A stretch of DNA of 63,502 nucleotides, counting the filler, from Welwitschia mirabilis (Eukaryota): NCBI GenBank assembly GCA_051453625.1. It is 5 parts of one record of this genome, joined end to end, with 100 filler letters (N's around TTAATTAATTAA, not from the genome) between each part and the next. Parts side by side here need not be neighbours in the genome. Positions count along the whole stretch, not along the records: positions 1 to 24,234 come from JBOZIK010000001.1; 4 more parts are not named here. One strand, 5' to 3'. The notes below the pieces were generated by a model that had not been told where the DNA came from, searched no databases, and saw only the letters and a list, made by a program, of their open reading frames with translations. The position numbers and the translations under genes were made by a program. Below are positions 320-63,502 of this stretch, in pieces (position 1 is the stretch's first letter; the number at the start of each line of letters is the position of its first letter).

Positions 320-1594
320 GTGCATTTTTTACACAACTAGTTAAAGTTCTTAATAATTAGGTTCTTATCTTTCAGACAAAGTACATTTTAAATGGCTATG
401 TTGAATCTTCTAATCTAAACACTTAGGAAATTCAGAAGTTAATGGATAAAATGTTAAGAATCATTGACATATCTCTTAGTAACCTTGAACATGATAGAAG
501 CACTTGTGTTGGAATTTTTTTCTTGCCATTATCTAAATTCTTTTTTAGCTGATTTCTTTGGTAAATATCATGCTATCACTTAAAGATCTTTAACTTGACT
601 AATGTTTTACCTTATAAAGTTACCAAGATTAGTAAATATTTTACTTGGGAATTTTCAATGATAATATTAGTTTCACCTAGTCTTTAGAAATTTATATGTC
701 TATGAGCTTTATTTTAAAGGAAGATGTCTTGATTCTTTTGTTTTTTTCAATGGTATAAGTAATCAGTTATTTTAGCATGTTCTTCCTTGTTATTTATCTC
801 CTCACTTCACTTTTATTCTTATGAGTATTTGGTCATGTNNNNNNNNNNNNNNNNNNNNNNNNNNNNNNNNNNNNNNNNNNNNNNNNNNNNNNNNNNNNNN
901 NNNNNNNNNNNNNNNNNNNNNNNNNNNNNNNNNNNNNNNNNNNNNNNNNNNNNNNNNNNNNNNNNNNNNNNNNNNNNNNNNNNNNNNNNNNNNNNNNNNN
1001 NNNNNNNNNNNNNNNNNNNNNNNNNNNNNNNNNNNNNNNNNNNNNNNNNNNNNNNNNNNNNNNNNNNNNNNNNNNNNNNNNNNNNNNNNNNNNNNNNNNN
1101 NNNNNNNNNNNNNNNNNNNNNNNNNNNNNNNNNNNNNNNNNNNNNNNNNNNNNNNNNNNNNNNNNNNNNNNNNNNNNNNNNNNNNNNNNNNNNNNNNNNN
1201 NNNNNNNNNNNNNNNNNNNNNNNNNNNNNNNNNNNNNNNNNNNNNNNNNNNNNNNNNNNNNNNNNNNNNNNNNNNNNNNNNNNNNNNNNNNNNNNNNNNN
1301 NNNNNNNNNNNNNNNNNNNNNNNNNNNNNNNNNNNNNNNNNNNNNNNNNNNNNNNNNNNNNNNNNNNNNNNNNNNNNNNNNNNNNNNNNNNNNNNNNNNN
1401 NNNNNNNNNNNNNNNNNNNNNNNNNNNNNNNNNNNNNNNNNNNNNNNNNNNNNNNNNNNNNNNNNNNNNNNNNNNNNNNNNNNNNNNNNNNNNNNNNNAA
1501 AGAAAAAAGAAAAAGAAAAGAAAAGAAAAAAAAAGAAAGAAAAAAAAATAATTCAGGCCATACCCTGTCATGTTATATCTTAAAATATGGCCCT

Positions 1595-1749
1595 CATGAT
1601 GTCCTACTGCAAGCGCACTAAGGCAAATAATCCCTAGAGGGGTCTTTGGCAGTGTGATATGGTAGCTATGGGAACTCCACCGGGAGATTAGTTGGCCATG
1701 CTATGTAGGTCCTTATTCCTTTCATAGTGGTTGCACTCCCCTCATCATA
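1595..1749 (+). ncRNA. Candidate structured cis-acting RNA element, copy 1
   Basis: CATGATGTCCTAC...CAGTGTGATATGGTAGCT...GTGGTTGCACTCCCCTCATCATA. One of six homologous copies with conserved helices. Function is inferred only. Confidence 0.5.
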
Positions 1750-3350
1750 GTAAGAATAAAATTGTAGTTAGAGGTTACGGGATCAGTGGTGTCCTTGGTA
1801 TCATTAGAGGCATTGCTTGTTTTTTAGCCTTATTTTTATTTATTTATATAACCTCTACATGGTCACTTTACTTTTTTGGATTCTAGTGTTGTTTTGAAAT
1901 GATAGCTTGTAAGTTCCTGTTTTAACATCTTTTTATCTTATCATTTATTGGTTAATAATATTAGACATACTTGACATCGTCATAATCATTATGCATTCGA
2001 GTGGAACTTTATGAATTTTTATATTATGTCATGCATCATTATTAGGTGATTTTATGATTTTTTCCAAGGGACTTTACTAAAGATTAATTTTGGGTAGGTA
2101 AGCAAATCTTTTTCATGTTCCTAGTTGTCCATTTTTTATTATATTTTTCTTAGTTATTTATTTGGGATTTTCAAAGTTATTACAATATCTTTTTCTATAT
2201 TATAATTAGAATCTAATCATTTGGTAGCTCTCTAGTTGTCTTTTTATTTTCACTCATAGGTTTTCTTTATAAGGGCTATTTTTCTTTTTCACACTATTAA
2301 TTGATGCATTTCTTTTAACTCAACTAATGTGATCTTTTTGTGCTAACGTTTTTGTTGTCTGGTTGTATGGTTTTGCATTTATCCACTTACAGATTTTCTC
2401 ACACTCTTGGATTTAAGAATACATTGGAGGAATACTTATGAGCATTTCTATATTTAATGCATGACTATGATCTCATTAGTTTCTTCTTTAAGGTTCTATT
2501 TTTAAAGATTAGTTCTTTATATTTTTCTTCTTTTTATTTTTTTTGCCATGTCTCTAATACTTGCTTGCTGTTAAAATTTTCTAGAATTTTTTCTAAATAG
2601 TCNNNNNNNNNNTCATCCACACTACAGAAGGGACGACAGTCATCCTTTTTTCTTTGTGCAATCCAAAACGTCTTGCTTTTCCTTTGAGAGGGATGCAGGA
2701 TAGCTCTCTGAGCTTTTTTCTAAAATATTACAGCAAAAATATATCATTTTTAAGGATTATTTTGAGCTTGGATGATGCATATTTATAATGTATTGTTTGG
2801 ACATGATTCCATATTACTTGAGTACATTTCATGGAATTTATTTAGCAGGAGTTCTGATCATTTAAAAGAATNNNNNNNNNNTTTTTTACCCTTGTAGAAA
2901 ATATTAATGAGCTTTTCATGCATTATTTTTTGATATTATTACTACTTAAGCTTACATATCAATTTCAGCATTATTTCTACACATTTTCAATTTTTCTGAA
3001 CTATCACTCTAACTTGTTATGTGTATGACATTTATTTGGACTGTTGTAATGAGTTTAAGTAGGGGGCTTATAACTACAGTAGTAATTGTATTAATGAATT
3101 GTTATCCTCTATTCCTGCATAATAAATAGAATTGAAATTCCATTTCTTTAGTTGATGATTATCTTAGTCAAATTAGCTTACAATCTAGTTGATCGCCTAC
3201 TTTGTCAGGAATTGATAAGGCTAAGTAGGGNNNNNNNNNNNNNNNNNNNNNNNNNNNNNNNNNNNNNNNNNNNNNNNNNNNNNNNNNNNNNNNNNNNNNN
3301 NNNNNNNNNNNNNNNNNNNNNNNNNNNNNNCTAGTTGATCGCCTACTTTG

Positions 3351-3381
3351 TCAGGAATTGATAAGGCTAAGTAGGGGGCTA
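3351..3381 (+). promoter_or_regulatory. Athila-type polypurine tract region
   Basis: TCAGGAATTGATAAGGCTAAGTAGGGGGCTA directly before the LTR TGTT. The same motif abuts LTRs on the minus strand at 23050, 41305, 51612 and 57180. Confidence 0.8.
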
Positions 3382-3950
3382 TGTTTCGATGCTGATTTGT
3401 AGGAATTTGATGGTGTATTTGGAGTACTTTTGCAAGACATTTATATAGGTTTAGATGCAGTTCTACTAATTATAGAGAGATAATACGATAATCATGAAAA
3501 CTTGTAATTCTTGGCATAATTGGAGTCATTTCAGGCATGTTCTGATACTTAGCATATTGAAAGAGGACTAAAGGTGAAGAAGACCAATTTACACTATTTT
3601 AGGAGCTTGAGAAGAGTGTTGTTCCCACTAACATCCCTACAACAAAGGGGATGACAGCTCATTAACATAGCTACATAGGAGCAGTACATGGGCAACACTT
3701 AAATAGCAGCACATGTTGATAAGGCATTGTTCTTTAGGTCATCTGGATGACAGGTAAGATGATGAATGTGAGTACAACTCACGGGGCTGATAGTAGATAT
3801 GGGCATGCAATCCAAGGAATCATCCACTCTATCATATGAATGACAGATAGGATGACAGAATCAATAACATGTGTAGGTAACCCATGGGATCATAGGCACA
3901 CAACCTAAGCTGGTAAGGTGGTGTCGTCCCCTATGTTGTATGGATGATAT
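3382..3950 (+). repeat. Athila LTR, 5' part only (truncated)
   Basis: Starts TGTTTCGATGC and aligns with the reverse complement of the LTR end at ~8000-8245 (shared ATTTATATAGGTTTAGATGCA). Confidence 0.75.
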
Positions 3951-7143: not shown

Positions 7144-8245
7144 TGTTGTGGTGTGTATTTATGCAATGTTAAAGTCCTTTAAGTAAATCTGTAAATCAAA
7201 ATACTTGTAGAAAAATAGACACTAGTATAAACAGGAGTTTACTTAAATGTTGATATCTCAATAAAGGCACTAGGATCAGAGTTAAAGCATTTATTTTTAA
7301 AGGTATTTTTAGTCTTTTTATCTTTGAATGACTAAAAGTAAATAATAAAGTAAAATGTAATGCAAAGTGAATGGAGATGAAATGCAAATGGAAGTGTAAT
7401 AAAAATGAAATAATAAAGCAAATCTAAACTAGCATAATCAACCTTGAAAAAGGTTGCTCTTATAATTTAAATAAATTATAGAATTATCACTTAAAATATA
7501 ACCAACTTAAACCATAAAAGATATAAATAGAATTAAAATGAAAAGAGTAATTATATTGATTTACAAAACTTTGCATCCACTTACAACAAAGTAGCAGCAC
7601 CTCAAAGGAAGAGACTCAGCCTAATACTAAGGGAACTAGATACTGGATGAATCTCTTATTTTTTAACCTTCTATCACAAGCATGTCAAGTACAAAAAATG
7701 GAAACAGAGATGAGGAAGGGGAAGGATATTAACAGTTTCCCATTGAAGTTCTAAAAGCTCAACCATAAAAGTCAGAAAATAAATGCTAAAAGCCTAAATG
7801 GATCTCATGATCCCATTACAAAGTTAAATATTTTTTACCATTAAAAAAATAGCTATCATCCTAAATGTTATAAGCATAATAGAGGGGACATTACTCTATG
7901 TCAAAAGGTACTCCATCAGCTTCAAGCCCTACTATCAACCCTAGAGCTTCTATCCACATCAGTAGTGCTATCGTCCTATCTATCATAGGAATGACAGAGG
8001 GGATAACAGGCTTCTTTATCTTTAATATCAATAAGGAATTAATCTTCTATATGGTAAATCCTTCTTTCAAAGTATATATTATTAGAATAAACTTGAGAAG
8101 CCTTCAAAAATGCTAAGAATCACATGTTTCAATTACCATCCTATCAGTTCTTTATAATTATTGGTATTGCATCTAAACCTATATAAATATCTTGTAAAAA
8201 CACTCCATATACACCATTAAATTGCTACAAATTGGCATAATAACA
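7144..8245 (-). repeat. Athila 5' LTR of A1
   Basis: + strand termini TGTTGTGG...ATAACA. Homologous to the other LTRs and adjacent to a PBS. Confidence 0.85.
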
Positions 8246-14325: not shown

Positions 14326-14775
14326 CTCAGTTTTGATGTTTAGTATGTTGTCCCTATGATCATTCAGATGATAGTCTAGATAATAGATAACACAGAAAAC
14401 ATAAAAATAAAAAACATAAAAAACAAAAGCGCATAATAACAAACATAGAAAATACTAAAAATTGATTGTTGTCTCCTAACTTATCTACATAATAGAGGGA
14501 ATGATATAAAAACCCTAATTTTCTAAGAAAGTGAAAAATTGAAAAAAATCAAGGCATAAAGGTCATCATAGTTGCACATTATTAGATGATGAAGTGGATG
14601 ATAAAGCATTTATTTTGGAATGTAAAACTAGAAATTATAAAAAGAAAAATCTGTATTACTGTAACTAAAAATATAGTGCTACTATAGGAAAATATCCAAA
14701 CTAGAATCCAAACACTTACTTGATCAATGATAATCCTTAAATGTTAAGTAGCCTTCTCTATCAATGGCACAAAGA

Positions 14776-15772: not shown

Positions 15773-16321
15773 ATATGGTTCTTTCATAAGCTAGATGTTG
15801 TTTTAATTCATATTACAAGCTCTATTTCTTTTGTTAATTGATACTTTAATATCCTTTATGATTTATATTTTTTAATTTGGTAATAGTATCATTAGTAATA
15901 TAGGTCTTAAGAAAAACCTTTATTAAGGTTGATGAGAGTAGTTTAGAAGCATTTTTCATTACACATTATTTGACTTAATTGATAGCTTAAGTTGGTTTAA
16001 GTTAGTGATAGTTTTTCTAGTTGATTTAGGTTATATAGGATCAATCTTCCTTATAAATTAATTTAGTAATCAAATAGGTGTTCATCTAGATTAAGTGCAT
16101 TTACATTGCATTACGTGTTTACGTTTTTGCATTGTAGTTAAGTTTAATATATAATATTTTTTTTGAAAATTAATTCTCTTCTTCTCTTACATGCCTTTAA
16201 TGGGTTTATGATAATTGTATCACTTCCATTTATAATAGTGTATCATATTTTGCAATATATATATTTGTGATTAATAGGATTCAATAAAGGATGAAAATTT
16301 ATAAAATTACACACTATAACA
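15773..16321 (+). repeat. 3' part of the Athila 5' LTR of A+
   Basis: Ends ...ACACTATAACA, matching the reverse complement of other LTR ends, and is followed by a PBS. Confidence 0.75.
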
Positions 16322-16324: not shown

Positions 16325-16342
16325 TGGCATCATTGCTAGGGA
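16325..16342 (+). promoter_or_regulatory. tRNA-Asp primer binding site (deaminated)
   Basis: TGGCATCATTGCTAGGGA differs from TGGCGCCGTTGCCGGGGA (complement of the plant tRNA-Asp 3' end) only by C>T/G>A changes. Confidence 0.85.
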
Positions 16343-22104: not shown

Positions 22105-24234
22105 TGTTGCGGTGTGCATTTACGCATAATTTTATGTTTAAATAGATTCTATCATNNNNNNNNNNGACTCAGGTTGCTTTTGTAAATTAACTTAGGAACC
22201 AGAAATAATAGAGAATAATGTAAGAAAATAAACCACCATGCAAAGTGCAAGATGCAATCTAAACTAACATGCAATCCAAATAATCCTAATCCTACTTGTT
22301 TTTTAGTCCTAACAAAGGTTGCCCTTGATAATCTATATCACCAAAGAAATTATTACTAGATCAAGGGCAACATTAGACTATAATGGTCGGAAGAAGATCT
22401 ATCATGCAAATATGAAAATGAAACAAAGATTTATATTAAAATGGTAACATTCATTTGGGTTACAAAACAACTAGGTTTTAATAGAAGATACTCAGCCCTT
22501 TACCAAGTGCATGTCTTTTTATAACTCACATAACGAGAATCTCTGATGCATCAAAGATGATAAGAAGAGTTGAAAGGGGACTTATTTATAAGGAATATAT
22601 AGTAGATAAAGATAGATAGTTAGTGTGATTAGGCATGCTTATAATAACTGAGAAGTGCATGAAATAGTCAAGGGAATCTTATCTAAGTCAGTTACATGGG
22701 AGTATCTTCCAGACGGGGACAAAAGTACATTATAAAATTTTCTTAAAATGCTGACTCAGCAGTCCACATTGGCACAATGTTGTCTTTCTTGTCATTTGGA
22801 TGATGAAGGGGATGAGGCCTTCTTTACTTATTTTCTTGAGAAGAAACCAGCATTTTATCAATAATCCTTTTTCAAATATTTATGCATCAAAAAGTACCTT
22901 TAATGCATCAAATTTAAATAAGAATTGCATTTTTTTGATATTTCTTCTTGTATCTCCAAAATCCTCATAATTTCATCTAAACTTGTATAAAAGTCCTGTA
23001 AAATAACTCATAAAACCCCATCAAATAACGTTAAATTGGCAATGTAACATAGCCCTCCACTTAGCTTTTGTCAGTTCCTGATAGAAACTAGACTAAAAAA
23101 CCATAATTGCAAGATAATTTATTTTTTAAAAGATAAATCTAGAAATCATAAAATAGGCTCATAAAAACACATCACATGGATAAATAACAAGTAGTTCGTA
23201 ATGTGTATGAAAATTTTAAAAATTTTATGTCATAAAAGCTGTAAATTAAGTTAAAAATTTTTGAAAACTGAGCCATGAAAATGAGTCTCCACTCCCCTCC
23301 CTCTCATCATAAAGAGAAAGAAAGATGTTCCATATTAAATAAAGCAAATAAGATAAATGAGAGTGAGAAGGAGGTGCAAGATAATGAAAATGGAATCAGG
23401 TTTCAAAACAAAGTGCAAAGCTAAGTAATGTCATATTTGAAAAATATAAAGATAGAAAATATTTTAATAAGAAGAGGGAATAATAAAAATGTTTTCTCAT
23501 AAAAAGAACATGAGCAGCACTTACAACACCAAAAATATGAAAAATAACACAAATTTATTGAGAAAAAATCAGCTAAGAAACTATCTTTTATTGAAAACTT
23601 AAATAAGAAAAATATGTTAAGAAAATACAGTAATGACTTTGAAATAACAAACTAAACCACAAATAAAAATAAGAAGAATGGACATAAGATAACATAAACA
23701 AAAGATAGCTCACCAATATAACATTTGAACCTAGCAAATTTCCATGAAAGAAAACATAACATCACTTAATGTAAAAAATGAATGACTTAATGTACAAAAT
23801 ATCCATTCGATAATGCAATGATTATGATGATGCTAGAGTAATATGCTTTAAACAATGAATGATTAGACCAAAGAATTGCTCAAAAAATGAACTCTCCTAC
23901 TATCATCTCAAAACAAACAACAAAATCTCAAGAAATGAAATGGATATTTAGAAAGACTAAAAGTCTAGGAAATAAGCAATGTCTATGATGACACCAGGAA
24001 CACCATTGATCCTGTAGCCTTAAAGTTATTCGAAAAAATTTATTATCTATAATGAGGGGAGTGCAACCATAGTCAAAGAAGTAAGGACCCAGGAGGCATG
24101 GCTAACTGACCTCCTAGTGGAATTCCCATAGCTATCATATTACACTACCAAAAGCTTCTCTTAGAAATATTTGCCCTAGTGTACTTACAGTAGGACATCA
24201 TGGTGACCATGTTCTTAAAATATCTCAAATATAA
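22105..24234 (-). mobile_element. Athila element D: 3' LTR (22105-23049), PPT, 3' UTR; inserted at the C1 RT start
   Basis: TGTTGCGG...GTAACA termini, PPT complement TAGCCCTCCACTTAGC at 23050. UTR homologous to 57180-58330. Confidence 0.85.
24048..24202 (-). ncRNA. Candidate structured RNA element, copy 2
   Basis: Reverse complement aligns end to end with 1595-1749. Confidence 0.5.
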
Positions 24235-40142: not shown

Positions 40143-42661
40143 TATTGCGGTGTGTATTTGTGCAATGTTTCACACTTTAATTTCAATCCTGTTAATTATA
40201 ATAAGATGTAAAATACAACACGATAGTATAGACATAGTGATACGAATGTCATAATTCNNNNNNNNNNNNNNNNNNNNNNNNNNNNNNNNNNNNNNNNNNN
40301 NNNNNNNNNNNNNNNNNNNNNNNNNNNNNNNNNNNNNNNNNNNNNNNNNNNNNNNNNNNNNNNNNNNNNNNNNNNNNNNNNNNNNNNNNNNNNNNNNNNN
40401 NNNNNNNNNNNNNNNNNNNNNNNNNNNNNNNNNNNNNNNNNNNNNNNNNNNNNNNNNNNNNNNNNNNNNNNNNNNNNNNNNNNNNNNNNNNNNNNNNNNN
40501 NNNNNNNNNNNNNNNNNNNNNNNNNNNNNNNNNNNNNNNNNNNNNNNNNNNNNNNNNNNNNNNNNNNNNNNNNNNNNNNNNNNNNNNNNNNNNNNNNNNN
40601 NNNNNNNNNNNNNNNNNNNNNNNNNNNNNNNNNNNNNNNNNNNNNNNNNNNNNNNNNNNNNNNNNNNNNNNNNNNNNNNNNNNNNNNNNNNNNNNNNNNN
40701 NNNNNNNNNNNNNNNNNNNNNNNNNNNNNNNNNNNNNNNNNNNNNNNNNNNNNNNNNNNNNNNNNNNNNNNNNNNNNNNNNNNNNNNNNNNNNNNNNNNN
40801 NNNNNNNNNNNNNNNNNNNNNNNNNNNNNNNNNNNNNNNNNNNNNNNNNNNNNNNNNNNNNNNNNNNNNNNNNNNNNNNNNNNNNNNNNNNNNNNNNNNN
40901 NNNNNNNNNNNNNNNNNNNNNNNNNNNNNNNNNNNNNNNNNNNNNNNNNNNNNNNNNNNNNNNNNNNNNNNNNNNNNNNNNNNNNNNNNNNNNNNNNNNN
41001 NNNNNNNNNNNCATATGTCCAATTAGGGTTGTTATCCTGACTATCGTCTGGATGACATCGGGGACGATAGTCTTCTACTCATCCTTTGTCAGTGTGATAT
41101 TTGGTTGTTTGTAGAAATAATCATCTGAAAATACAATTTATCCATATCTATAGGAAATCTTCATGAATTATCTAATAAACTACATGTTTTTGTCTTGTGC
41201 TTATAAATTCTCAATTGTCATAGGAATTAGGCATTTATTTGTTAGTTTATCTGTAAAACAACGTAAAATACCCAATCAAATACACTTAAGTTGATGTTGC
41301 AACATAGCCACCCACTTAGCCTTGTCATTTCCTGAAAAAATTAGGCGGTAAATTGTGTTTGCAAGCCAACTTTTCAAACAATAAAAGCTAGGATATGTAA
41401 AAAAAACATCTAACAAAAATGTATCTGTAATGAATCTGAATCTAAATTTCTAAAAATTTTAAAAACTNNNNNNNNNNNNNNNNNNNNNNNNNNNNNNNNN
41501 NNNNNNNNNNNNNNNNNNNNNNNNNNNNNNNNNNNNNNNNNNNNNNNNNNNNNNNNNNNNNNNNNNNNNNNNNNNNNNNNNNNNNNNNNNNNNNNNNNNN
41601 NNNNNNNNNNNNNNNNNNNNNNNNNNNNNNNNNNNNNNNNNNNNNNNNNNNNNNNNNNNNNNNNNNNNNNNNNNNNNNNNNNNNNNNNNNNNNNNNNNNN
41701 NNNNNNNNNNNNNNNNNNNNNNNNNNNNNNNNNNNNNNNNNNNNNNNNNNNNNNNNNNNNNNNNNNNNNNNNNNNNNNNNNNNNNNNNNNNNNNNNNNNN
41801 NNNNNNNNNNNNNNNNNNNNNNNNNNNNNNNNNNNNNNNNNNNNNNNNNNNNNNNNNNNNNNNNNNNNNNNNNNNNNNNNNNNNNNNNNNNNNNNNNNNN
41901 NNNNNNNNNNNNNNNNNNNNNNNNNNNNNNNNNNNNNNNNNNNNNNNNNNNNNNNNNNNNNNNNNNNNAAAGGAAAACATCATAACATTACCTGAGTAAA
42001 GATGTATGACAAAATGTATTAAATCGATAAAGTTCATTCGAAAGGGCAGTAGTTATGATGATATCCAATGTTTCAAGTGTGTAGAACAATGAAGGTTAAA
42101 TCAAAAGATATTTAGGAATGGACTCATCTATTTTTATCTACTAACTCACTAAAATCTTCAAAGGTGAAATGATCAAGTGGAAATATGTTTTATTTCTTTT
42201 GCTATAATGAGGAGAGTGCAACCACTATCAAAGGAGTAAAGACCTATAAAGCATGGCCAACTAACACCCCAATGAAGTTTCCACAGCTACCATATTACAC
42301 TGTCAAAGGCTCCTCTTAGAAATATTTACCCCAGTGTACTTGCGGTAGGACATCGTGCTTTTTCTTTTTTTCTTTATTTTTCTTTTTCCTTTTTTTTGAA
42401 ACAAAAAGAGTAATAATTTCCACAGGATCACATACTTGAGAAGACTAAAGTGTATAAGTAAAGTAAAAGAGAGAAAAGAAGACTCCTTGATAACTTAAGA
42501 TTTAGCCACCATTGAAAAAAAATAACACAATAAACAAGGTATCTTCCTATAAATACAGTCCATAGACATGATAATGTCTTAAAATTGGGTGAATCCTATC
42601 TTACCACTTATAAATGCCCTAGTATATATTAATCATAATACTTTATAAAGTAATACACAAG
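40143..42661 (-). mobile_element. Athila element F: 3' LTR (40143-41304), PPT, 3' UTR
   Basis: TATTGCGG (TG>TA)...GTTGCAACA, PPT complement TAGCCACCCACTTAGC. Interrupts the A+ integrase tail. Confidence 0.85.
42203..42357 (-). ncRNA. Candidate structured RNA element, copy 3
   Basis: Reverse complement aligns with 1595-1749. One of the least decayed copies. Confidence 0.5.
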
Positions 42662-42761: not shown

Positions 42762-45700
42762 AGCATAAAAACATTTAAAAGACTTGGTTGAATGTAGTTA
42801 AGCATGGCATAAACCAAGAGAAAATAAAACTCTTGAGCAATCATTAAGAGAAATAAATCACATTAAACATCAAAAGGTTAAACAAAAATAAATCATTTAT
42901 GAATATAAAGATAGTAGTAATAGTGATAGCCCATATGTAAGAAAAATGATGAAAGCAATAAAAGAAGTAAAATTAGAAAAGGCCCACATCACATCTACTC
43001 CTACTTGTGAATCATGTAAAGAAAATAACTTAGTAATTAAATGTTCATTTTCACCAATAGTAAAGGAAGTAGTAAGGGAAGCAACATGCTATGAAAACCA
43101 ATCAGATCCTAATCATTACAAAGGACCTTATCACAATGAGAAGAAAACTTATCATCAAACAAGTCCTTCTTTTAAACCTAAATATAAACCCTCCTTAAAA
43201 CAACCATATAACCTAGGATATGAAGGATATAGTTAACATAAGCAAGATCCAATTAAGAAAGGTATGATAGAGATAAGAAAACATCCATGAACAGACTCAT
43301 AATAGTATTGAACAAACTCAAAAAAATATACAAGATTTGATTAGAGTCATGCAATAGATTATGTTAGTAAACCAAAGATCATAAGGCACATTAGCTTCCA
43401 ATACCTTGGCTAATTCAAATGATGTAAAGAAAAATTAAAATGTGATAACCCAAAGAGGCACTACTACTGCACCTAAAGAACCACCTAAAAATGATGATGT
43501 TGAAGAAAATAAGGATGAAGATGTATAAATCCTTGATGAGACATAATTTCCTTATATTTCTACTTCAATAAACAAGGATGAATCATCAATGAAAGAATAA
43601 AAACATCATATCCCTTGATTATATAGACTCAACTTTAATCCAACATATGATGAATACATCAAAATCATCATAAAGTATGTCAACGTCATACTACCATATT
43701 GGCACATACTTCAAGACAACCCTAAGTATGCCAAAGTATGGAAGGACCTTTGTAGATGGAAGCAAAAACATACATTACTAAGTAGAGTTTTTTCCTGATC
43801 TATGACCAACTTGGTAATGAAAAAATGTCTAAAATTCAAAGATTTAGGGGCAACAATTATTAGTGTAATATTAGAAAGTAACAAAAAGTTTAAGAACACT
43901 CTTATTGTCATAGGTATAACTGTGAACATTATGCCTCTACATATTTGCTTAACTAACAAAAATAATCTTGGAAATGGCTGATTTAACATTGAGAAAGTTT
44001 ATTGGAATTATCAAAGATTTGGTTATCCAAATATAGGAATCCTACTACCCCATTAATGTTATCATTATTGAAATTAATCACAATTACATATATCCCTTTT
44101 TTTTAGGTAGATTATTTTGTACTACTATCCATTGCATTATAGAAATTAGAACTGGAATCATGGAAATTCATGTAGATAGCAAAAATATCCAAGTTTAAGT
44201 CTTCAACATAATAGAAAAAGAAAAAATCCAAATGATGAGCTAAGAAAATATATTAGATTAATAATGTTTATAGATCATCATTTACTTAAATTAAAGGCCT
44301 TCACACATAAACAACTAATTCTTTTTGATGATATGAAGGAATTGTCAACAATCTTAAGTAGTCTTAATTCCATCAACCCTTGTTAACTTGATAGTACTAT
44401 GAAAACCCCAATGGAAGAAAATTTTAATAACAGCACAATCCAAGACATAGTAGAAGTAAAAGTCATGGAAATAACTTTTTATGGGAATGACCATGCAACC
44501 CATCATAGACATAAAGGAGTCAACTTTGAGATAAATTTTAAGGATATTAAAAAGGAATTTAAATACATCTTTATCAACAACCATCCTAAAAGGTAATTAC
44601 TCACTAGTATTCATCTCTAACCTAAAGCTGAGAAAGCCTTAGTATCACTCCTCACATCTAAATCTAAAGCTTTTACATGAAGTCATAAGGAGTTATATCT
44701 AATTCCACTACATATTATTCAATGAATGATATACTTAAAGGATAATTCAAAACCCATAAGGTAACCTTAAAGAAATCTAAATTAAGCAATAAAAGAAGTG
44801 ATTAAAGATTATATCATTAAACATTTAGATGCTGATATCATTTACACTATAAGTAATAGTAAATGGATTAGTCCATTAATAGTTGTACCTAAGAAGGATG
44901 GTAAGTGGAGCGTATGCATAGACTTCTAAATACTTAATGAAGTAACCAAAAAGTTTAACTATCCTCTCCCTTTTCTTGATCAAGTATTGGATAGAATAAA
45001 AGGACATACATTCTACTATTTCCTTGNNNNNNNNNNNNNNNNNNNNNNNNNNNNNNNNNNNNNNNNNNNNNNNNNNNNNNNNNNNNNNNNNNNNNNNNNN
45101 NNNNNNNNNNNNNNNNNNNNNNNNNNNNNNNNNNNNNNNNNNNNNNNNNNNNNNNNNNNNNNNNNNNNNNNNNNNNNNNNNNNNNNNNNNNNNNNNNNNN
45201 NNNNNNNNNNNNNNNNNNNNNNNNNNNNNNNNNNNNNNNNNNNNNNNNNNNNNNNNNNNNNNNNNNNNNNNNNNNNNNNNNNNNNNNNNNNNNNNNNNNN
45301 NNNNNNNNNNNNNNNNNNNNNNNNNNNNNNNNNNNNNNNNNNNNNNNNNNNNNNNNNNNNNNNNNNNNNNNNNNNNNNNNNNNNNNNNNNNNNNNNNNNN
45401 NNNNNNNNNNNNNNNNNNNNNNNNNNNNNNNNNNNNNNNNNNNNNNNNNNNNNNNNNNNNNNNNNNNNNNNNNNNNNNNNNNNNNNNNNNNNNNNNNNNN
45501 NNNNNNNNNNNNNNNNNNNNNNNNNNNNNNNNNNNNNNNNNNNNNNNNNNNNNNNNNNNNNNNNNNNNNNNNNNNNNNNNNNNNNNGAATACAAGGACAT
45601 ACATTCTACTATTTCCTGGATGGTTATAGTGGATATAACTAAGTATATAATTCAAATGAAGATTAACTAAAGACTAATTGTACTTCACCTTTTAATACTT

Positions 45701-47950
45701 CTGCCTTTAGGAAAATGCCTTCTAGTTTATGCAATGCTCCAGGTACCTTTCAACATGATATGATAGGAATTTTAAGTAATCTTATAGAAAACTTTATCAA
45801 CATTTTCATGGATGATTTTATAGTCTTTGGAGATTTATTTAATCAAATTTGAAATCATTTAGCACAAGTCTTAGAATAATGTATTGAGAGTGGACTTCAC
45901 CCTAGTTGGAAAAAGATCCATTTCATGATTAATGAAGGAATAATTTTAGGACATCATATTTCAATGAGAGGTATACAAATGAACCCATTAAAAATTAATT
46001 TCATTAAGAATCTTCCACCTTCTTTTAATGTAAAACAACTTTAATCATTCTTAGGACATTATGGATTTTATCATATATTCATAGAAGGATATGCAAAACT
46101 TTGTACGTTACTCATCAACTTTTGGAGACAAATGTTAAGTATGAATGAAGTAATGAATCCTAACAAGACTTTAAGAATTTTAAATTGCCATTACTAATGA
46201 AAACATAGTGAGTGGACTAGATTGGGATAAGGACTTCGACTAATGTGTAATTCTAGTAATCTTGCTATAGATGGGATGTTAGAAAAAAAACATGAGAGAG
46301 GAATAAAAGTAATTAGATACATTAGTAAAACCCTTTCTAGTGCCCAAATTAATTATACAACTATTAAAAAGAAATGCTAAAAATCATCTTTTGTCTCAAC
46401 AGACTTTGACATTATCTTCTTGGTTTCCATATTTATGCCTATACAAATCATGCTAGCATTAAATATTTAATGATAAAGAAATATCTTAATACATACCTTA
46501 TATAATGGATACTCTTATTACAAGAATTCAACTTGATGATATTAAAAAAAGTAGGAAAACAAAACCTAGTAGCTAATCATCTTTTTAGAATTCCTTTAAA
46601 TACTTCTCCTAATTCTTCTGATCAGCCTATTTATGATGATTTCCCAAATGAAGAAATTTTCATGGTTGAACAATTTTATGAAGTATTATTAAAACAACCT
46701 GCTTCATGATACCCTAATATTGTAAACTATCTTATCACACTTAAAAAACCTCCTCATTGGAACAGAAACCAATGAAAATTTTTCCTCTATAAGATACATG
46801 ACTATGAATGGATTGAACCACATATATATAGATGATGTACAAACCAAATCATGCAGAAATTTATTTTGGAATGGAAGACAAAAGATATACTTCTTCCTAA
46901 CCATGATAGAGTTTGTGGAGGTCATTTTAATAGCTAAAAGACTATCATATAAATCTTACATTTAAGATTTTATTGGCCCTCTATATTTAAAGATGCCTTT
47001 GAGTTTGCTAGGAAGTATGATTCTTATCAATGATCTAAAGATCTTACTCAAACTTAAAATATGCCTCTTACACCTATTTTGAAATGTAAACCTTTTGGTT
47101 ATTGGGGTATAGACTTTGTAGGTCCTCTTAAACCCCCTTCATATAGAAAGAATTATATCTTAGTGGCAGTCTATTATGTAACAAAATGGATTAAAGTCAT
47201 ACCTATAAAAACTTATGATGTAAAACTTGTTTGTCAATCCCTTAGATCAAATATTTTTCAAAGATTTGGATCTCCTAGGATTCTCATTTTTAATTAAGGT
47301 ACTCACTTTATTAATAAGATCCTTATAAAACTCTTACTTTAGTTGGGATTGAACGTAGAATATCTAACTCTTACCATCCCCAATTAAATGGGAAAGCTAA
47401 AAATATTAATTGAGAGATCAAAAAAGTACTCTTAAAACTTTGTTATAAGTCTCGAAAGTCATGGGTACTTCATCATAGTGATATCCGTTGGACTTACTAT
47501 ATGGCTTAGTGTAATTATTTAGGATTCCCTTCTTATGAACTTATCTATGGAAACACATATGTTCTTCTAGTTTATGTGTGCTATAATTCTTATAAAATAG
47601 TCCATTAACTTAACCTTGTTTCTCATGATAACAATATTTAAGTGTACTTAACTCAATTGAATCACCTTAATGAAAAAAGAATATAGACTCTTCATTACCA
47701 ACTTATAGTTAAATCCCAAGCCAAATTTGGACATAATAAAAACCTTATGCATAAGACTTTTACCCTAGCCAATATGTTTTACTTTTCAATGCTAGAGTTG
47801 ATTTAATTCAAAACAAACTAACTTTTATATGGTTAGGTACATATATAATTGAGAAGTTACATTCCAATGGTTTAGTTGAGATTTCTAACCTTAGAACTAA
47901 AGGAATAATAAAGGAAAATAAATAAAATTTAAAGCATTATCAGTTACTTG
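42762..47950 (+). pseudogene. gag-pol: Athila gag-pol remnant of B2
   Basis: KWISPLIVVPKKDGKWSVCIDF, YPLPFLDQVLD, FLDGYSGYN, NIFMDDFIVFG (RT); YTNHASIKYL (RNase H); WGIDFVGP...YILVAVYYVTKW (integrase, ORF 47061..47297). Confidence 0.92.
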
Positions 47951-48266: not shown

Positions 48267-48438
48267 CATGATATCCTACTACAAGTGCACTAGAAGGATA
48301 GTTGGCTATCGATTTAATTCTATTTTGGTAGTGTGATATGGTAGCTATAAGATTCCACCCAACAGATAGTTAGCCATAATTAGGTTTTTACTTGTGGATC
48401 CTTTCTCTTGAGGTAGTGGTTGCACCTCCCTCATCATG
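48267..48438 (+). ncRNA. Candidate structured RNA element, copy 4 (divergent)
   Basis: Conserved blocks CATGATATCCTAC, GTGTGATATGGTAGCT and GTGGTTGCAC..CCCTCATCATG, while the flanks show little clear similarity to those of the other copies. Confidence 0.5.
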
Positions 48439-50520: not shown

Positions 50521-52312
50521 TGTTGTGATGCGAATTTATGCAATGTTTCACGCCTTGATCTAAATCCTATTAATTACAAATAAGATACACAAACATAGCA
50601 TGCTAGTANNNNNNNNNNNNNNNNNNNNNNNNNNNNNNNNNNNNNNNNNNNNNNNNNNNNNNNNNNNNNNNNNNNNNNNNNNNNNNNNNNNNNNNNNNNN
50701 NNNNNNNNNNNNNNNNNNNNNNNNNNNNNNNNNNNNNNNNNNNNNNNNNNNNNNNNNNNNNNNNNNNNNNNNNNNNNNNNNNNNNNNNNNNNNNNNNNNN
50801 NNNNNNNNNNNNNNNNNNNNNNNNNNNNNNNNNNNNNNNNNNNNNNNNNNNNNNNNNNNNNNNNNNNNNNNNNNNNNNNNNNNNNNNNNNNNNNNNNNNN
50901 NNNNNNNNNNNNNNNNNNNNNNNNNNNNNNNNNNNNNNNNNNNNNNNNNNNNNNNNNNNNNNNNNNNNNNNNNNNNNNNNNNNNNNNNNNNNNNNNNNNN
51001 NNNNNNNNNNNNNNNNNNNNNNNNNNNNNNNNNNNATCTTCTGTCATGAGTATATTAGGTACTGTAAAAGATGATTAGGAATTAAGGGAAAGACCTTTAT
51101 TTATAGACAGAAAAGAAAGGAAAAGTGACAGAGAAGTATAGGAGAAACCCTAGCTAACATGCAAAGTAAAGTTGTAATATAGTAGCGACAACTCGGAAAA
51201 ACATTCGATAAAAGTATGAGAGAATAGTATCATCTTTCTAGTCAGTCAGATGAAGGAGAAGCTGATAATGAGGTATCTGTTTAGCTCCTAGTCTAACTAC
51301 TCATCAACTACATGTAAACTTATTATCGCCTTGTTTGAGATGTCATCTTCTATTGATATCCGGATGATTAGGTGACGAGCTTATGTCAATCTTCAGTCAG
51401 TTTAATCACTTCTTATTTACAGGAATTATTATCTAAAAATACAATTTATCCATATCTGTACTAAATGCTTGTAATTTATTTGGAAACTGCATGTTTTCAT
51501 TCTCTTCATCTCAGTTCTTGATTATCATAATAATTAAGTATTTATCTATTAATTCATGTGTAAAACAACTCAAAATACCTTATTAAATACACATAAGTTA
51601 GCAACGCAACATAGACCTCCACTTAGCTTTATCAATCCCTGATAAAAATAGGTGGTAAACCATATTTATGAGCCAACTTTTAGACAATAAAAATAGCTAG
51701 GATATTTAAAGAAAGAATCTAAAAAAGATTTCAAGCATATTACAAAGGTAGACTGAATTTCTAAAAATTCAAAAACTCAATAAAAATACCTATGAAGCAT
51801 CAGAAAAATTGGTTGTCCTTTATGTTGTTCGAACGATAATGGGGACAACAGGCTCTTCAAAAGATTTTTAAAACTAGAACCTGTGATAGAAATCAAATAT
51901 TTTTTAATTTAATAATACTAATAATCAGCCTCTCATTTTGATAAATAGTAAAATATAAAGATAATCTTATGAAAATTAAGGGATCCTATTTAGTAACTGG
52001 CTTGAGAGGAGGATCTGTAATAATGTTTCTTATAATTGAAAAAATTTGTATCATAAATACTAAATCATAAGTACTGAAAATATATGTATCCTGCCCCCTC
52101 ACTTAAAATGTGCAATGCATCCCAAATTGCCAAAACTAATGAAAAGGGAAAATACTAAGGAAAAATAAAAATGTGAAAATGACTAGAAAATAGAAGACAT
52201 GAAAATAGAAGAAAAGTAGAGGAAAAATGAATGCAAAAAACAAGGAGAAGAATGACCTAGCTTAAGTACTAACTTAGCAAACTCCAAAGGAAAACATCGT
52301 AACATCACCTGA
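50521..52312 (-). mobile_element. Athila element G: 3' LTR (50521-51611), PPT, 3' UTR
   Basis: TGTTGTGA...ACGCAACA, PPT complement TAGACCTCCACTTAGC. LTR of the same subfamily as F and H. Confidence 0.85.
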
Positions 52313-52721: not shown

Positions 52722-55600
52722 ACATTACCTTGAGAAGTATACTCTAGAAATCTCTCTATTGTTTCTTTTTAAACTTCATGTGGTACAAAAACTAACATCT
52801 TTTTCTCTTTTACAAAGTCAACTTTATCTTGTGCTTTTAATAATTACTCTTTCAAAAAATAAGTCTTGGGATTTTTTGGAACTCTAAATTATGGTAAACT
52901 TTATTTTCTTGATTAAATTCATGCTTATAATTAAAAGTTAAGGATCTTCTTAAGTATGTTAAACCTATCTTAATCAATCACCCTAAGAAGTTTCTTCAAA
53001 AGCATTAGATACCAAATTACACAATTAATGTCTTCCTTGTTCAATATTAAGATTTGAATGAAATATATGTTTTAAATTTTATAAATAATAAGTTTGCTAA
53101 AAGATTTTTTTTTCCTTTTTTGCAAAATATATGAATTTCTTATCTCTTATATTGCTACTAAATCTTATGAAGAAAAAATTCCATTTGGTTAGGTTAATTG
53201 GAAAAAATCTTATTTCTTTATTAAAAATCCATATCTTGAGTTAAATGATATAAAGCTTTTTAATCTCACTAGGAATTCTAAAGAGCCCTAAAAATTATCT
53301 TGGATACTTTATTTGAGTACTTCTTTACATGCATTATATGATGATAGTCATGATTTATGTCATTTTAATAAGAGATTTATTCTCAGTAAGATTTATTACT
53401 TTTTATCTATTATTTAAAATCTAAAATTTGTGCTATCAAAGTTTTATTCTGTTATTGTTTTTAGCTCTAGTTGATTTTACTAAAAAATGATTATAAACCT
53501 TTTATGTTTTATCAATTAGTGAATATTTAATTTGATCTTTATCTTTCCAAGAGAATGCAATATTTTAGAACCATCATCTTAGAAATGAATCTTTCTTTTT
53601 TTAAAAAAAATAAGGTGTTTAATAGAATTTAGAATTTAAATAAAACTTATTTTTAGTTTGATTTAGTTTTTTCCTTTTGATTTTATGTTGTTATGATTAT
53701 GTCTTTGGTTTTTATTTCAATAAATTAAACTCTAGATAAGTAGATACTTATCTTTTAGAGAAAATACATTTTTAATGGTTAAGTTAATATTTTCATTTTA
53801 AACACTATAAAAATTCAAAAAAAAAAAAACAAAGGTTACAAATTCGTAAATTATCAAACTATCTTAAACATGATATAAGTACTTATTTTGAAAGTTCTCC
53901 TACCATTATTTGAATTTATTTTTAGCTTATTATGTTGGTGGATGTAATGCTATTACTTGAACATCTTTTAAACTTGACTAATGTTTAACTTTACCCAATT
54001 TCCATGACTAATAATTTTTACTTAGACATTAAAGTGATAATATTATATTCACCCAATATTAATACATTCAAATATCTATGAAATTCTTTTTAAAAACAAA
54101 AATGCTTTATTTTTTAATGTTTTCTCTCAATGGTATGAGTGTTTGGTTGTTTAGAGATTTTCTTTTTTATTTTTCATCTCAATTCTTCATATTATTCTTC
54201 ACAAGTATGTGGTCATTTGAGATTTATCTTGAAAAAGTATTTAAAAAATAAAATAAAGAACAATGGCCATGATCTATTGTTTTTATGCTAAATACATGGT
54301 TACCATGATGTCTTACTTCACCAGGGTAAATCTCCTTAAGAGGGACCTTTGGTAGTAATGATAGCTATAAGAACTCCACTAGGGATTTGTTAGGCATGCT
54401 TCATGAATCCCTACTTCTTTAACTATGGTTATACTACCCTTATTATAGAATAATAATAATTCTTTGAAACTATAAAATAGTAGTATTCCTGATGTCATCA
54501 AAGAAATCACTTGTTTCTTAGACTCATTGAGCCTATAATGTTTCCATATGATCATCTTACTTTTATGGATTTGGATGTGTTTTGGGATATTATTAGGTAA
54601 GCCCATTTTTATGTAGCTTTTGATCTTATCATTTATTATTTAAAAATGTTAGTTACTTAGCATTGTCATAATTACTACTAATTCAAGTGGTACTTTATGG
54701 AGTTTTTGCATTATGTCATGCATCATTAATCAGGTAATTCTATAATGTCTTCCATGAGGATTTACTAAGCTTGAATTTAGGGTAGGTATACAGTCTTATT
54801 CATGTTCCTAGTTGTCCATTTCTGTTTTATTTTCTTTACTTATTTTCTTTGGAATTTCAAAGTCATTTCCTTAATTTTTCATCACAAATTTTTAGAACTT
54901 GATCATTTAGTATATTTCTTATTAACTTTTATTTTTATTTATAGTTTTTCTTTTTATAAGTTAATTTTATTTTTGTAAATAAATAAATTTCCTTAGTTTA
55001 GGATGCTAATTTTCCCCATTTATTATTTTGAATCTTTTCAAGTTTAGTTTTCTTGAATTTTTATTTTAAGTTTTGATGCATCTAGTAATATGTTTTAATA
55101 ATTATGGGTTCATGGCACATTTATCTTCCTTAACTTAGTACATTTATCTCCTTTATCATGCCTTGATTTATTATGATTCTTAGCCATTTACTACATTTTT
55201 AATTCTCTCATTGCTTTTTAAAACCTACTTGATGGTATCTAAGATTAACTTATTCTTCTTATACTTTGAATTTTTTAATCTTTTGCAAAGCCTTGTCATA
55301 CACACTGTCATCTAGAGGACAAGTGGATAACATGCAGATATTTTTTTAAATGATCATTATTTTCATATTTCAACTTTTTTAGCTTAAATTTGACCCTTAT
55401 TTTCATGCACAAAATATTATTCCTAGCCTACCTCTATTACTTAATTTTATCTAAACTTGCATATTGATCTTTTTCATCTTATCTTAATGCAATAAGGACA
55501 TATTGATTTACTTGTGGAGGGGAAAAGACATTTATTTTGATATACTTAAGCAAAATTTTAATTTTTTTAAGGGTTATTTGATATTATCATGAGACATATC
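52722..55600 (+). mobile_element. Internal region of a gag-pol-less Athila-like element (unknown ORF tail plus 3' UTR)
   Basis: LKVKDLLKYVKPILI at 52931 matches LKVKEFLRYINPILV of ORF 59413..59748. UTR homologous to 330-2300. Right end uncertain. Confidence 0.7.
54304..54447 (+). ncRNA. Candidate structured RNA element, copy 5 (decayed)
   Basis: Aligns with 1595-1749 with small deletions. Confidence 0.4.
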
Positions 55601-56935: not shown

Positions 56936-58151
56936 AGGACGATGGTTTTCTTTAATGATTTTCTTGAGAAGAGACTTAGCATTTTAAACATGAATCCTTC
57001 TTCAAAGATCTATTTATCAAAAAGTGCCTTTAATGCATTTAATTTGTATAATGATCGTACTTTTCTGAGATTTTCTCTTGTATCTCTAAAATCTTTAGAA
57101 TTGCAACTAAACTTGTATAAAAGCTCTACAAAAAAACTCATAAAACCCCATTAAATAACTATAAATTAGTAGTGCAACATAGCCTCTCACTTAGCCTTTT
57201 TAAGTCCTTGACAAAAACCAAGAAAAAAAACTATAATTGCAATCTAATTTATTTTTCAAAAGATAAATTTGAAAATCATAAAACAGGCTCATAAAATACA
57301 TAACATAGATAAATGACAAGCAATGCATAATGTGTATGAAATTTTGAAAATTTTATGTCATCAAAGCTTTAAAAATTTTGACAAATAAGCCATGCGAATG
57401 GGTCTCTTCCTCCCCCTCCCCAAAGTAAAAGCAATACATCCCATATTGGAGAATAAAGCAAAGAAAGTAAATAGGAGTAGGAAGGTAGGTAATGAAAATG
57501 AGGAAAACTTTTAAAACAAAATTCAAAGCTACGTAATGTCAGTTTTGAAAACTATAGAAATATGAAATATTCTGACAAGTAAAGAAAGGAGTGAATAATA
57601 AAAATGTCTTGTCACAAAAAGAACATAAGAAACACTTACAACACCAAAATATAAAGAAATTAAAACACAAATTTATTGAGAAAATACTTATCTAAACAAG
57701 AAATTATCTTTTATTAAAAACTTAAAAAAATAAAAGAAAATATAGTAATGACTTTGAAATAACTAATAAAAACACAAAAGAAAATAAGAAAAATGGACAT
57801 AAGATAACGTACACAAAAGATAGCTTACCAATATGATATTTTAGCCTAGTAGACTCCTATAAAAGTAATCATAATATTACTTGATGTTGAAAATGCATAA
57901 CTTAATGTATAAAAATTTCATTCGAGAAGGTATTGATTATGACGATGCTAAAGTAAAATGATTTAAATAATGAATGATAAAGAATTGCTTAAAAATAAAC
58001 TCTCCTATTATCATCTCAAAACAAATACCTAAATCTCAAGAAATAAAATGATCATGTGAAAAGACTAAAAATCTATGAAACAAGCAATATCTTTGATGAT
58101 ACCAAGAACACCACTGATCATAGCCTCGAAGTTTAAATATATTTTATTATC

Positions 58152-58306
58152 CATGATGAGGGAAGTGCAACCACGATTAGAGAAGTAAGGATCCACGAAG
58201 CATGGCCAAGTAACCTTCCAGTGGAGTTTCCACAGCTACCATATTATACTGTCAAAGGCTCCTCTCGAAAATATTTACCTTGGTGTACTTACGGTAGAAC
58301 ATCATG
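58152..58306 (-). ncRNA. Candidate structured RNA element, copy 6
   Basis: Perfect CATGATG/CATCATG closing stem and GTGGA-AAC-TCCAC hairpin. Confidence 0.5.
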
Positions 58307-61876: not shown

Positions 61877-63502
61877 TTTTTTAAAAGAAGAATGGGAGGA
61901 AGACAATCTTTAGGTCAAGATAAAGATAGATGCTAAAAGATGATAAAAATAAAATAATCTCAAAAAAATAATGTATTCACCTAGATTTTTTATTCTTTTC
62001 CTTCTTAAATAATTTCTTCTGTCAATAGCCCTTTTTTCTCTAATAAGCATTTTTTTAGACCAATAATGTCATAATACCTATAAATAGAAAATGATAGAAA
62101 ACAAATTAAAAAATAATAGACTATCATCCTATCTATCATGGCGATGGCAAAAGGGACAACTTACACAAAAACTTGAAAAATAGAAACAGAATCAAACCAA
62201 AACAAAAAAATAAAGAAATACAAAAAACAGTCTTGTTATCCAACTAGTTGTTCCTACATCATAAAAGATGATAGAAACTACTTTATTTTAGAAAAATTGC
62301 AATCCAAAAAACCAAAATAAAAAATAAAAATATGACACTGTCATACTGACTATCATGGGGAGACAGAGAAGACAACGATACTATATTATAGAAAATTAAA
62401 ACCAAAAAAATAAAACTAAAAAATAGCACACAGAAAATCTATAGCTCCTAATAAAATACAAGACTGAATAGATAAATAATCGAATAGAGGTCTGATACAC
62501 TCACCTAAACAACGACAACCCTAGTACTCCTAAATACTCTTCCTTAGTAATGATGCTAATTTATTACTATGTGTATTTATGTAAGCTTTTATGTTCAAAA
62601 AGATCCTGTCATTAATAATCAAAATAAATATTTTACACAATACATCACACTAGTATAATGGGAGTTAACCTAAAATGTTGTATTCTCATTGAAGTCTATA
62701 AGTATGAGACTCAAGTTACTTTTTAAATGAATAGGAATTGAAATAAATAATGATGCAAGGAAATAGATTACAATGCAAAATGAAATATGCAATCTAAACT
62801 AACATGCAATGAAAAAAAACCCTAAATCTACTTACTTTCATTCTTAACAAAGGCTTCTCTTGATAATCTATATCATCTAAGAAACTATCATCAGATTAAG
62901 GGCAACATATACTATAAGGGTCATAGGAAAATCTACAATGCAAATATGAAAACAAAATAAAGGTTTATATTAAAAAAAATAACAATCATATGGGTTACAA
63001 TACAGTCGAGTCTCAATAGAGGATACATAGCCCTCCATCAAGTGCTTGTCTTTCTACAACACATGTAAATGGATCTTTCACCCTTCGATCTCCTATTTTG
63101 AGAATGTCTAGTGTAATGAAGATGAGAAGGAGAGTTGAAGGAGAACTTATATATAGGAAATTATAGCAAAAAAGGATAAATAGTAGGTGCAGTGAGGTGC
63201 ACTTACTAAGGACTCAGAAATAAACAAAATAGTTATGGGAATCTGTCAGTGATATTTATATGTCAATGTCATCTGGGACATCATCTGAATGACATAGGGG
63301 ATGATAGTATATTATAAAATATCTTCGAAATGATGACTTAGCAGTCCACATTAGTAGTAGTCATCTTGCCTGTCATGTGGACGACAGAAGAACGACAGTC
63401 TTCTTTGATGATTTTCTTGAGGAGAAGCTTAGCATTTTATTATGAATCCTTCTTCAAAGCTCTATTCATCAGAAATTTCCTTTAATACATTAAATTTGGA
63501 TC

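Follow-up and report, generated by a model that had tools for sequence, protein, structure and literature searches.

A constrained non-coding block in decayed Athila/Calypso-type retrotransposons of Welwitschia mirabilis, tentatively a cis-acting module

The window analysed here, 63,502 nucleotides (nt) of DNA from Welwitschia mirabilis (NCBI GenBank assembly GCA_051453625.1; positions 1 to 24,234 derive from JBOZIK010000001.1), is a scaffold rich in gaps (29 N runs) that has a GC content of 27.8% and is occupied by decayed nested long terminal repeat (LTR) retrotransposons with a mutual likeness of 60–78%. It contains six copies (c1 to c6) of a block that can be aligned over 155–172 nt with a mean column identity of 76% and that is internal to decayed Athila/Calypso-type Ty3/gypsy retrotransposons, in the region following pol. 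We tentatively regard the block, with a probability of about 0.4, as a constrained non-coding cis-acting module of the genomic RNA or cDNA of these elements. The first-pass annotation of this DNA had proposed a cis-acting RNA module with a defined fold; the apparently non-coding and constrained nature of the block, its location inside the element, its occurrence in pol-bearing and pol-less hosts and its absence from Rfam stand, whereas the specific fold does not find support. The copies are:

1595..1749, plus strand: block copy c1, the least decayed (GC 0.48)
24048..24202, minus strand: block copy c2, with the contig end 32 nt upstream of the block
42203..42357, minus strand: block copy c3, placed by alignment and profile
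48267..48438, plus strand: block copy c4, the most divergent, with two insertions, in a pol-bearing element
54304..54447, plus strand: block copy c5, with small deletions
58152..58306, minus strand: block copy c6, in a pol-less element

All six copies first reported could be aligned, and a profile built from them recovered exactly these six in the window with E values from 1e-48 to 4e-34; no further copy was found by this search, the next-best matches having E values of at least 1.5. The restriction of the profile matches to the six copies indicates that the block occurs once per element and is lacking in the other LTR-element family of the window. Degenerate patterns derived from the block gave 0 matches in metagenome, viral and prokaryote genome contigs.

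The constraint on the block becomes apparent when the two classes of base change are separated. Most differences between the copies are transitions, with C/T or A/G in 58 of 87 variable columns, as deamination of methylated repeats would lead one to expect. Transitions and transversions were therefore counted apart in an extended alignment of c1, c2, c5 and c6. In the pooled counts transversions amount to 0.040 in the block compared to 0.191 over the 700 columns downstream and 0.299 over the 100 columns upstream, whereas transitions are flat (0.193, 0.175 and 0.168, respectively), so that the better conservation of the block relative to its flanks, as previously noted, persists after control for deamination. 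The equal transitions imply that the copies are as old as their flanks and that the block is no cold spot for the dominant mutation type; transversions that are 5–7 times fewer at equal transitions imply that the active source lineages were not free to change the block. From this pattern we infer that the block was selectively constrained in the lineages that spawned the copies. The 155 nt stand out from both flanks in every comparison, including that with c4, the flanks of which are barely or not alignable. The block is also GC-richer than its surroundings, as had been described, with a GC content of 0.38–0.48 across the copies and, in a four-copy alignment, of 0.42–0.43 versus 0.10–0.38 in the flanking 50-nt windows. 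Among repeat copies of the whole window the transition divergence is uniform, approximately 0.17–0.21 per aligned site, whatever the transversion divergence; this signature of post-insertion deamination accounts for the GC content of 27.8%.

The position of the block relative to the coding region can be read from the c4 element, in which remnants of reverse transcriptase (RT), RNaseH and integrase lie on the same strand as the block and the block is located 906 nt past the integrase-core match:

45589..47360, plus strand: RT, RNaseH and integrase remnants of the c4 element (RVT_1, E 4e-9; RT_RNaseH, 1.5e-7; rve, 4.6e-6; Integrase_H2C2, 7e-5)

The RT of this element is interrupted by an assembly gap (45027–45586). 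For the host elements the gene order RT–RNaseH–integrase and a long non-coding stretch towards the 3′ LTR were found. The LTR junction of the c4 element itself was not found, the contig stopping 620 nt past the block, and no junction between polypurine tract (PPT) and LTR was detected between c5 and its contig end. To map the junctions, a 5′ LTR (approximately 7155–8245, minus sense) was aligned to the sequence that follows c1, c2, c3 and c6 and to a further copy at 51.6 kb. In all five 3′ junction copies the homology to this LTR starts exactly at TGTT, and these copies have in common the preceding ...GCTAAGTGGRGGGCTA, a G-rich polypurine tract; a ‘ttgggg’-type tract is reported for Athila-like elements in the available part of the FIDEL paper (PMC2844528). 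A junction pattern search gave 10 matches, five of them true, versus 2.3 expected:

3365..3386, plus strand: PPT/3′ LTR junction of the c1 element, LTR start TGTTT at 3382
23045..23066, minus strand: PPT/3′ LTR junction of the c2 element, LTR start at 23049
41300..41321, minus strand: PPT/3′ LTR junction of the c3 element, by pattern search and alignment
51607..51628, minus strand: PPT/3′ LTR junction of a further copy, by pattern search and alignment
57175..57196, minus strand: PPT/3′ LTR junction of the c6 element, LTR start at 57179

The junction follows the block on the same strand at a distance of 0.9–1.0 kb in c2, c3 and c6 and of 1.6 kb, N placeholders included, in c1. With c4 placed behind integrase and the junctions mapped for c1, c2, c3 and c6, the claim that the block lies in element sense, after the coding region and before the PPT, is borne out. 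Only c2 and c6 have, in addition, a G-rich purine tract some 240 nt before the true PPT/LTR junction (23287–23305 and 57404–57421, both minus strand), which is probably what the first-pass annotation took for the PPT; it may resemble the purine-rich small-RNA-producing site described in the 3′ region of Arabidopsis Athila.

The opposite end of the element was approached via the primer-binding site (PBS). According to the available text of a recent study (10.64898/2026.03.20.713144), the Athila PBS is the tRNA-Asp/Asn 13-mer TGGCGCCGTTGCC, positioned after an LTR-terminal pentamer and a spacer of 3–6 nt, and the same 13-mer is printed in the accessible part of the FIDEL paper (PMC2844528). The strict 13-mer, with up to three mismatches, has 0 matches in the window. 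A transition-tolerant pattern gave seven matches versus 3.2 expected, two of which are homologous to each other (16325–16337, plus strand; 62546–62558, minus strand), directly follow an LTR end (TAACA/TAATA and 3 nt) and continue with AGGGAAGG. An LTR ending with TAACA is expected to begin with the inverted complement TGTTA. Judged from these matches, the host elements appear to carry an Athila/Calypso PBS only when deamination decay is allowed for:

62546..62558, minus strand: decayed Athila-type PBS of the c6 element, differing from the published 13-mer by transitions throughout (homologue at 16325..16337, plus strand)

In the c6 element 5.37 kb separate this PBS from the 3′ LTR start (57179), and the two LTRs (56935–57049 and 63388–63501) are 83% identical. 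No Pfam match at E ≤ 0.1 was obtained in the 5.2 kb upstream of the c6 block. Upstream internal sequence is nevertheless common to c1, c3, c5 and c6 and, more weakly, to the pol-bearing c4, as exemplified by the homology between 47802–48191 (c4) and 53711–54082 (c5). The block is thus retained, as first noticed, both in an element with RT, RNaseH and integrase and in pol-less elements dependent on borrowed proteins.

Three other readings of the block were rejected. The purine-rich run before the block and the TGATG at its 5′ end had given rise to the idea of a 3′ LTR (unique 3′ region, U3) start; however, the homology to the 5′ LTR begins 0.9–1.6 kb after the block, and in all five copies whose upstream sequence can be seen, that sequence is of the internal type. 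A short PPT–LTR–PBS unit, similar to terminal-repeat retrotransposons in miniature, is refuted by the LTR pair of c6, which lies more than 1 kb further on. An insertion resembling a miniature inverted-repeat transposable element, with 7-bp inverted ends, is refuted by the contigs leaving at the 3′ edge of the block, which have one consistent Athila-like continuation.

Beyond the window, contigs of two DNA runs (X1 and X2, with two organism labels) were aligned to 57252–58806 at a likeness of at least 80%. Their summed depth, which is a sum over contigs and not a copy number, amounts to 221–235 thousand (X1) and 312–384 thousand (X2) on 58188–58291 versus 2–80 thousand in most flank bins; the block is 3–100 times deeper than its flanks in the contigs of two plant genomes. 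The RNA reads of two raw-read runs also peak on the block bins (23–26 and 8–12.5, versus 0–10 and 0–4), the aligned reads being few (194 and 50) and almost all less than 95% alike. Since 74–82% of the aligned reads continue into unlike sequence, the block is the part common to transcribed relatives, and the transcribed molecules are relatives of the c6 locus, not demonstrably the locus itself. First mates map to both strands in about equal numbers. No pile-up of RNA read ends, as produced by many molecules starting or ending at one site, was seen at the block, which is a weak negative in view of the few reads. In each RNA run eight reads pass from the 5′ edge of the block (58308) straight into a purine-only run, as found in c3.

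Several features border the block. Purine runs of at least 10 nt precede it in three of the five copies with visible upstream sequence, the shortest being a 10-nt run upstream of c4, and a 24-nt mini-block follows it in part of the copies:

1499..1548, plus strand: uninterrupted stretch of 50 A/G bases that stops 46 nt short of c1 and is truncated upstream by an N run
42358..42397, minus strand: polypurine runs of 21 and 18 nt, abutting the 5′ end of c3
1556..1592, plus strand: inverted repeat with 7-bp arms (GGCCATA...TATGGCC), located between the A/G stretch and c1
1781..1804, plus strand: downstream 24-nt mini-block of c1, exact
58096..58119, minus strand: downstream mini-block of c6, exact
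23988..24011, minus strand: downstream mini-block of c2, with three substitutions

An uninterrupted purine run of at least 10 nt is absent upstream of c5 and c6, and the sequence upstream of c2 is not visible. In composition the run is a simple repeat rich in A, (A4-5G)n, and differs from the AAGTGGRGGG of the element's 3′ tract. The arms of the inverted repeat are kept in c5 and c6, in the latter with a change on both arms. The repeat gives no more than a weak SECIS_1-like match (1537–1605, minus strand), with an E value of 0.029 when 401 nt are searched and of 4.6 for the whole window; this match extends 11 nt into c1. The downstream block, originally described for four copies, is clear in three (c1, c6 and c2); the fourth case, c5, is weak, the alignment revealing a more diverged version, and c3 and c4 are devoid of it. 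In the 50-column window of the mini-block transversions amount to 0.021. An interpretation of the mini-block as tRNA-iMet-type PBS was refuted because the fit to the 12-nt motif is confined to its first 8 nt; with up to two mismatches this motif has two sites in the window (18385 and 26916), which is chance level, none of them in a mini-block and both in the other, block-less LTR family. The interval between block and mini-block (58120–58151, minus strand; 1750–1780, plus strand) contains in many genomic copies, seen as loose contig ends at 58140–58143, a telomere-repeat-like motif of about 1.5 plant units that is degenerate in the window's own copies.

At the RNA level, the view that the block belongs to no known family agrees with the covariance-model search: Rfam (4227 models) gave 0 matches at the gathering score in the window and no match wholly inside a block copy at E ≤ 10 (1500–1900) or E ≤ 5 (whole window). 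The fold drawn by eye in the first-pass annotation was encoded as 39 pairs. Its stems are present, 89.6% of 230 cells being standard pairs versus 87.0 ± 0.8 in shuffles (2 of 500 as high), but a specific RNA fold is not supported. Doubly changed cells number 8 versus 4.3 ± 1.7 (17 of 500 shuffles as high) and the covariation score is 0.248 versus 0.186 ± 0.018 (3 of 500 as high); transversions are found in 9 of the 78 columns that are paired and in 20 of the 77 that are not (Fisher p 0.024). Covariation among six decayed copies is no more than suggestive, and a defined RNA fold of the block is possible. A long-range duplex between the block and the 5′ leader of the same element produced no signal (energy −65.8 versus −62.0 ± 5.1 in 25 shuffles).

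Several points weigh against the block being a structured cis-acting RNA. Single-sided changes keep the pair in 26 cells and break it in 24, which corresponds to the expectation for neutral deamination. The minimum free energies (MFE) of the six sense copies are ordinary, with z values of −0.33, −0.38, +0.18, +0.01, −0.96 and −1.3 (200 dinucleotide shuffles per copy), and the predicted MFE fold varies from copy to copy. RNAalifold, the check suggested at the outset, yielded for the six copies a weak consensus of −13.9 kcal/mol with a covariation term of −0.58, and the structure conservation index declines from 0.69 for the four most alike copies to 0.53 for five and 0.36 for six. Because the tested fold was drawn from the same sequences, the paired percentage, the slid controls and the contrast between paired and unpaired columns are inflated; moreover, the shuffle control, applied to tree-related sequences, is documented to give false signals in 5–25% of cases, and doubly changed pairs may reflect one inherited event, as for pair 38–47, which is U-A in c2, c3 and c6. 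The RNA libraries carry no strand information, so that the sense of the RNA is unproven. As the six copies are old and heavily deaminated, tests for both covariation and coding are low in power.

Judged from its substitution pattern, the block is unlikely to be protein-coding on either strand, and we consider it very unlikely that it is a coding remnant in the form of the start of a vestigial env-like second open reading frame (ORF), a 42-codon sense ORF from ATGATG or an antisense ORF. The sense frame opens with ATGATG behind an A-rich leader, and each of the six copies has a stop at codon 43 or 44; the antisense frame (58137–58304) is open for 56 codons in c6, and its stops in c1 and c3 fall where other copies read Q or W. 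Eight of 13 transversion columns are at antisense third positions (binomial p 0.035, uncorrected for three phases), a hydrophobic stretch is encoded around the mini-block downstream of c1, and vestigial env-like transmembrane segments are reported behind pol in the Athila-like FIDEL in the part of the paper available (PMC2844528). On the other hand, the variable columns are distributed over the three phases as 18, 17 and 21, without three-base periodicity, and the ratio of nonsynonymous to synonymous differences (pN/pS) is alike in all six frames (0.52–0.66), none standing out and the antisense frame being highest with 0.66; the codon-like substitution pattern that according to the first-pass annotation would speak for a coding origin was thus not observed. 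When 1.84 billion representative proteins were searched exhaustively by HMMER with the antisense peptide, 2 hits resulted, both repeat-motif proteins of about 1050 residues that match by their repeat and are no real relatives. For the sense frame no protein relatives were found among longer or similar-length proteins, the blank among longer ones being weak evidence. In addition, the frame joining block and mini-block varies between copies. The antisense TRP28-type ORFs of the Retand lineage, as described in the available part of the source (PMC11963269), were rejected as a counterpart; they belong to another lineage, and the block is without protein relatives.

Among the non-coding alternatives, it appears doubtful that the block serves as a reverse-transcription signal in which the upstream purine run is an internal plus-strand primer, resembling a central PPT, and the block the copied or displaced flap or a termination context. 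The runs before c1, c3 and c4 and the reads entering a purine-only run from the block edge would fit, as would the multiple internal polypurine tracts giving replication intermediates in plant EVADE (PMC7197481) and the clustered tracts in Sireviruses (PMC2829016), both taken from accessible parts of the sources; however, c5 and c6 have no such run, the run differs in composition from the 3′ tract, and priming takes 15–20 nt, which leaves 155 constrained bases unexplained. A block that has no function of its own and was spread by template switching or recombination, sits in a mutational cold spot or is a younger shared piece is unlikely: retroelement families do swap segments, the contig depth gives no copy number and only six copies were compared, but neither the distinctness of the same 155 nt from both flanks, in c4 too, nor the equal transitions in block and flanks agrees with it. 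It is rather improbable that the block is regulatory DNA, whether a promoter or enhancer inside the element that drives an antisense or subgenomic transcript, or that small RNAs arise from it or target it. A GC-richer island in AT-rich surroundings, the balance of first mates between the strands and a subgenomic Athila RNA that is heavily targeted by microRNAs in Arabidopsis (PMC7197481, in the part available) would be compatible with such a role. However, no site at which many molecules start or end was found, the mates on two strands may simply reflect unstranded libraries, no microRNA family matched in the window at E ≤ 5, and an element under selection would be expected to evade host small RNAs rather than to conserve their target. 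Hardly credible is a self-cleaving ribozyme or other catalytic RNA, an option raised in the first-pass annotation with which conservation and a possible fold, but nothing further, agree; no ribozyme family matched at the gathering score or at E ≤ 5–10, read ends do not pile up (weak, as reads are few) and the folding energy is ordinary.

As a constrained non-coding cis-acting module, the block would, in analogy to the systems discussed below, be recognised on the full-length RNA for post-transcriptional handling, namely its export from the nucleus, its stability or its packaging. Its action would probably proceed via a few local hairpins rather than one large stable fold, and the 24-nt mini-block 30 nt downstream as well as the purine-rich run just upstream may be parts of the same module. 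A more specific proposal, which we put forward with considerable reserve, is that the block could represent the first cis-acting RNA handling element of a plant LTR retrotransposon, a counterpart of the RNA transport element (RTE), the MusD transport element (MTE) and the constitutive transport element (CTE), or a 3′ packaging/dimerisation signal, needed by autonomous and pol-less elements alike for RNA export or packaging. The available parts of the literature on non-coding conservation in Athila contain no description of the island, an earlier one in work on Athila4/Calypso or in supplements being possible, and those on RNA export elements of plant retrotransposons describe no such element.

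The surroundings of the elements merit a few further remarks. Four identical spacers (24235–24334, 42662–42761, 52313–52412 and 56174–56273), each composed of 44 N, TTAATTAATTAA (a six-frame stop) and 44 N, look like artificial contig linkers; adjoining pieces are therefore possibly not genomic neighbours, which explains apparently chimeric element layouts. The pol-less c6 element contains acidic, lysine-rich open frames of 113–204 codons without Pfam match (59875–61559, minus strand) and within them a tandem duplication (61032–61234 and 61335–61543, 78% identical). Two truncated Athila-type 5′ LTR ends with their leaders are arranged head to head at 14390–16870 (14390–15401, minus strand; 15796–16870, plus strand, with the PBS at 16325) and show the dense nesting of the region. 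The second LTR-retrotransposon family, nested in or adjoining the Athila-type elements, is represented by the direct LTR pairs 17048–18329/33826–35039 and 24705–26242/30926–32450 (identity 75–77%) and has tRNA-iMet-type PBS-like motifs at 18385–18396 and 26916–26927 and no block copy.

Athila-type elements are among the most abundant plant retroelements and shape the centromeres in Arabidopsis. An island that is constant across diverged families and kept by non-autonomous partners marks what the element cannot lose. The block provides a defined fragment for export, packaging and reverse-transcription assays and possibly a lineage-specific seed for annotating Athila-type elements, and the separation of transitions and transversions, which exposed the constraint, is reusable for other old, methylated repeats.

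Among known systems, the RTE of mouse IAP, the MTE of MusD and the CTE of simian type-D retroviruses (the details of the last being general background) are cis-acting, non-coding elements of 150–250 nt between the last coding region and the 3′ LTR, which, as far as the available sources go, are needed by the full-length RNA and conserved within variable 3′ regions. The block resembles them in its 3′ untranslated position before the 3′ LTR and in being carried by transcribed relatives. These elements have proven folds and known partners (RBM15, NXF1), whereas the fold of the block is putative; in the absence of any sequence or Rfam relation the likeness is one of position and presumed role, not of membership. 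The Cassandra 5S module is likewise a GC-richer conserved segment of about 120–150 nt in a plant LTR element. A supposed resemblance of the block to 5S RNA was refuted by the lack of a 5S_rRNA match at E ≤ 10 (around c1) or E ≤ 5 (window), and unlike this module the block lies outside the LTR and once per element. According to the available text of a 2025 review (PMC12786077), mouse IAP and MusD use cis RNA export elements, and there are no direct studies of how the RNA of plant LTR retrotransposons is exported. In Sireviruses (Ty1/copia) the accessible part of the source describes short non-coding motifs, strongly conserved even among divergent members, towards the 3′ end of the internal domain, extra polypurine tracts and an inverted repeat among them (PMC2829016); these belong to another superfamily and form short boxes that coincide with or adjoin the PPT/LTR junction, in contrast to a 155-nt island approximately 1 kb upstream. 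An internal purine run followed by conserved sequence, as found here, also characterizes the central polypurine tract/flap of HIV-1, Ty1 and EVADE (PMC7197481, in the part available). Such a tract of about 15–19 nt would be present in all copies and similar to the 3′ tract, whereas c5 and c6 lack the present run or have it interrupted, and its composition differs from that tract. The seeds of ATHILAfinder are, in the accessible text, lineage-specific conserved non-coding LTR–internal junctions of about 20 nt each (10.64898/2026.03.20.713144); the elements described here share the PBS type and the principle of a conserved PPT/3′ LTR junction, and the block is a separate internal island. It belongs among the conserved non-coding cis sequences of LTR retroelements and is not a new kind.

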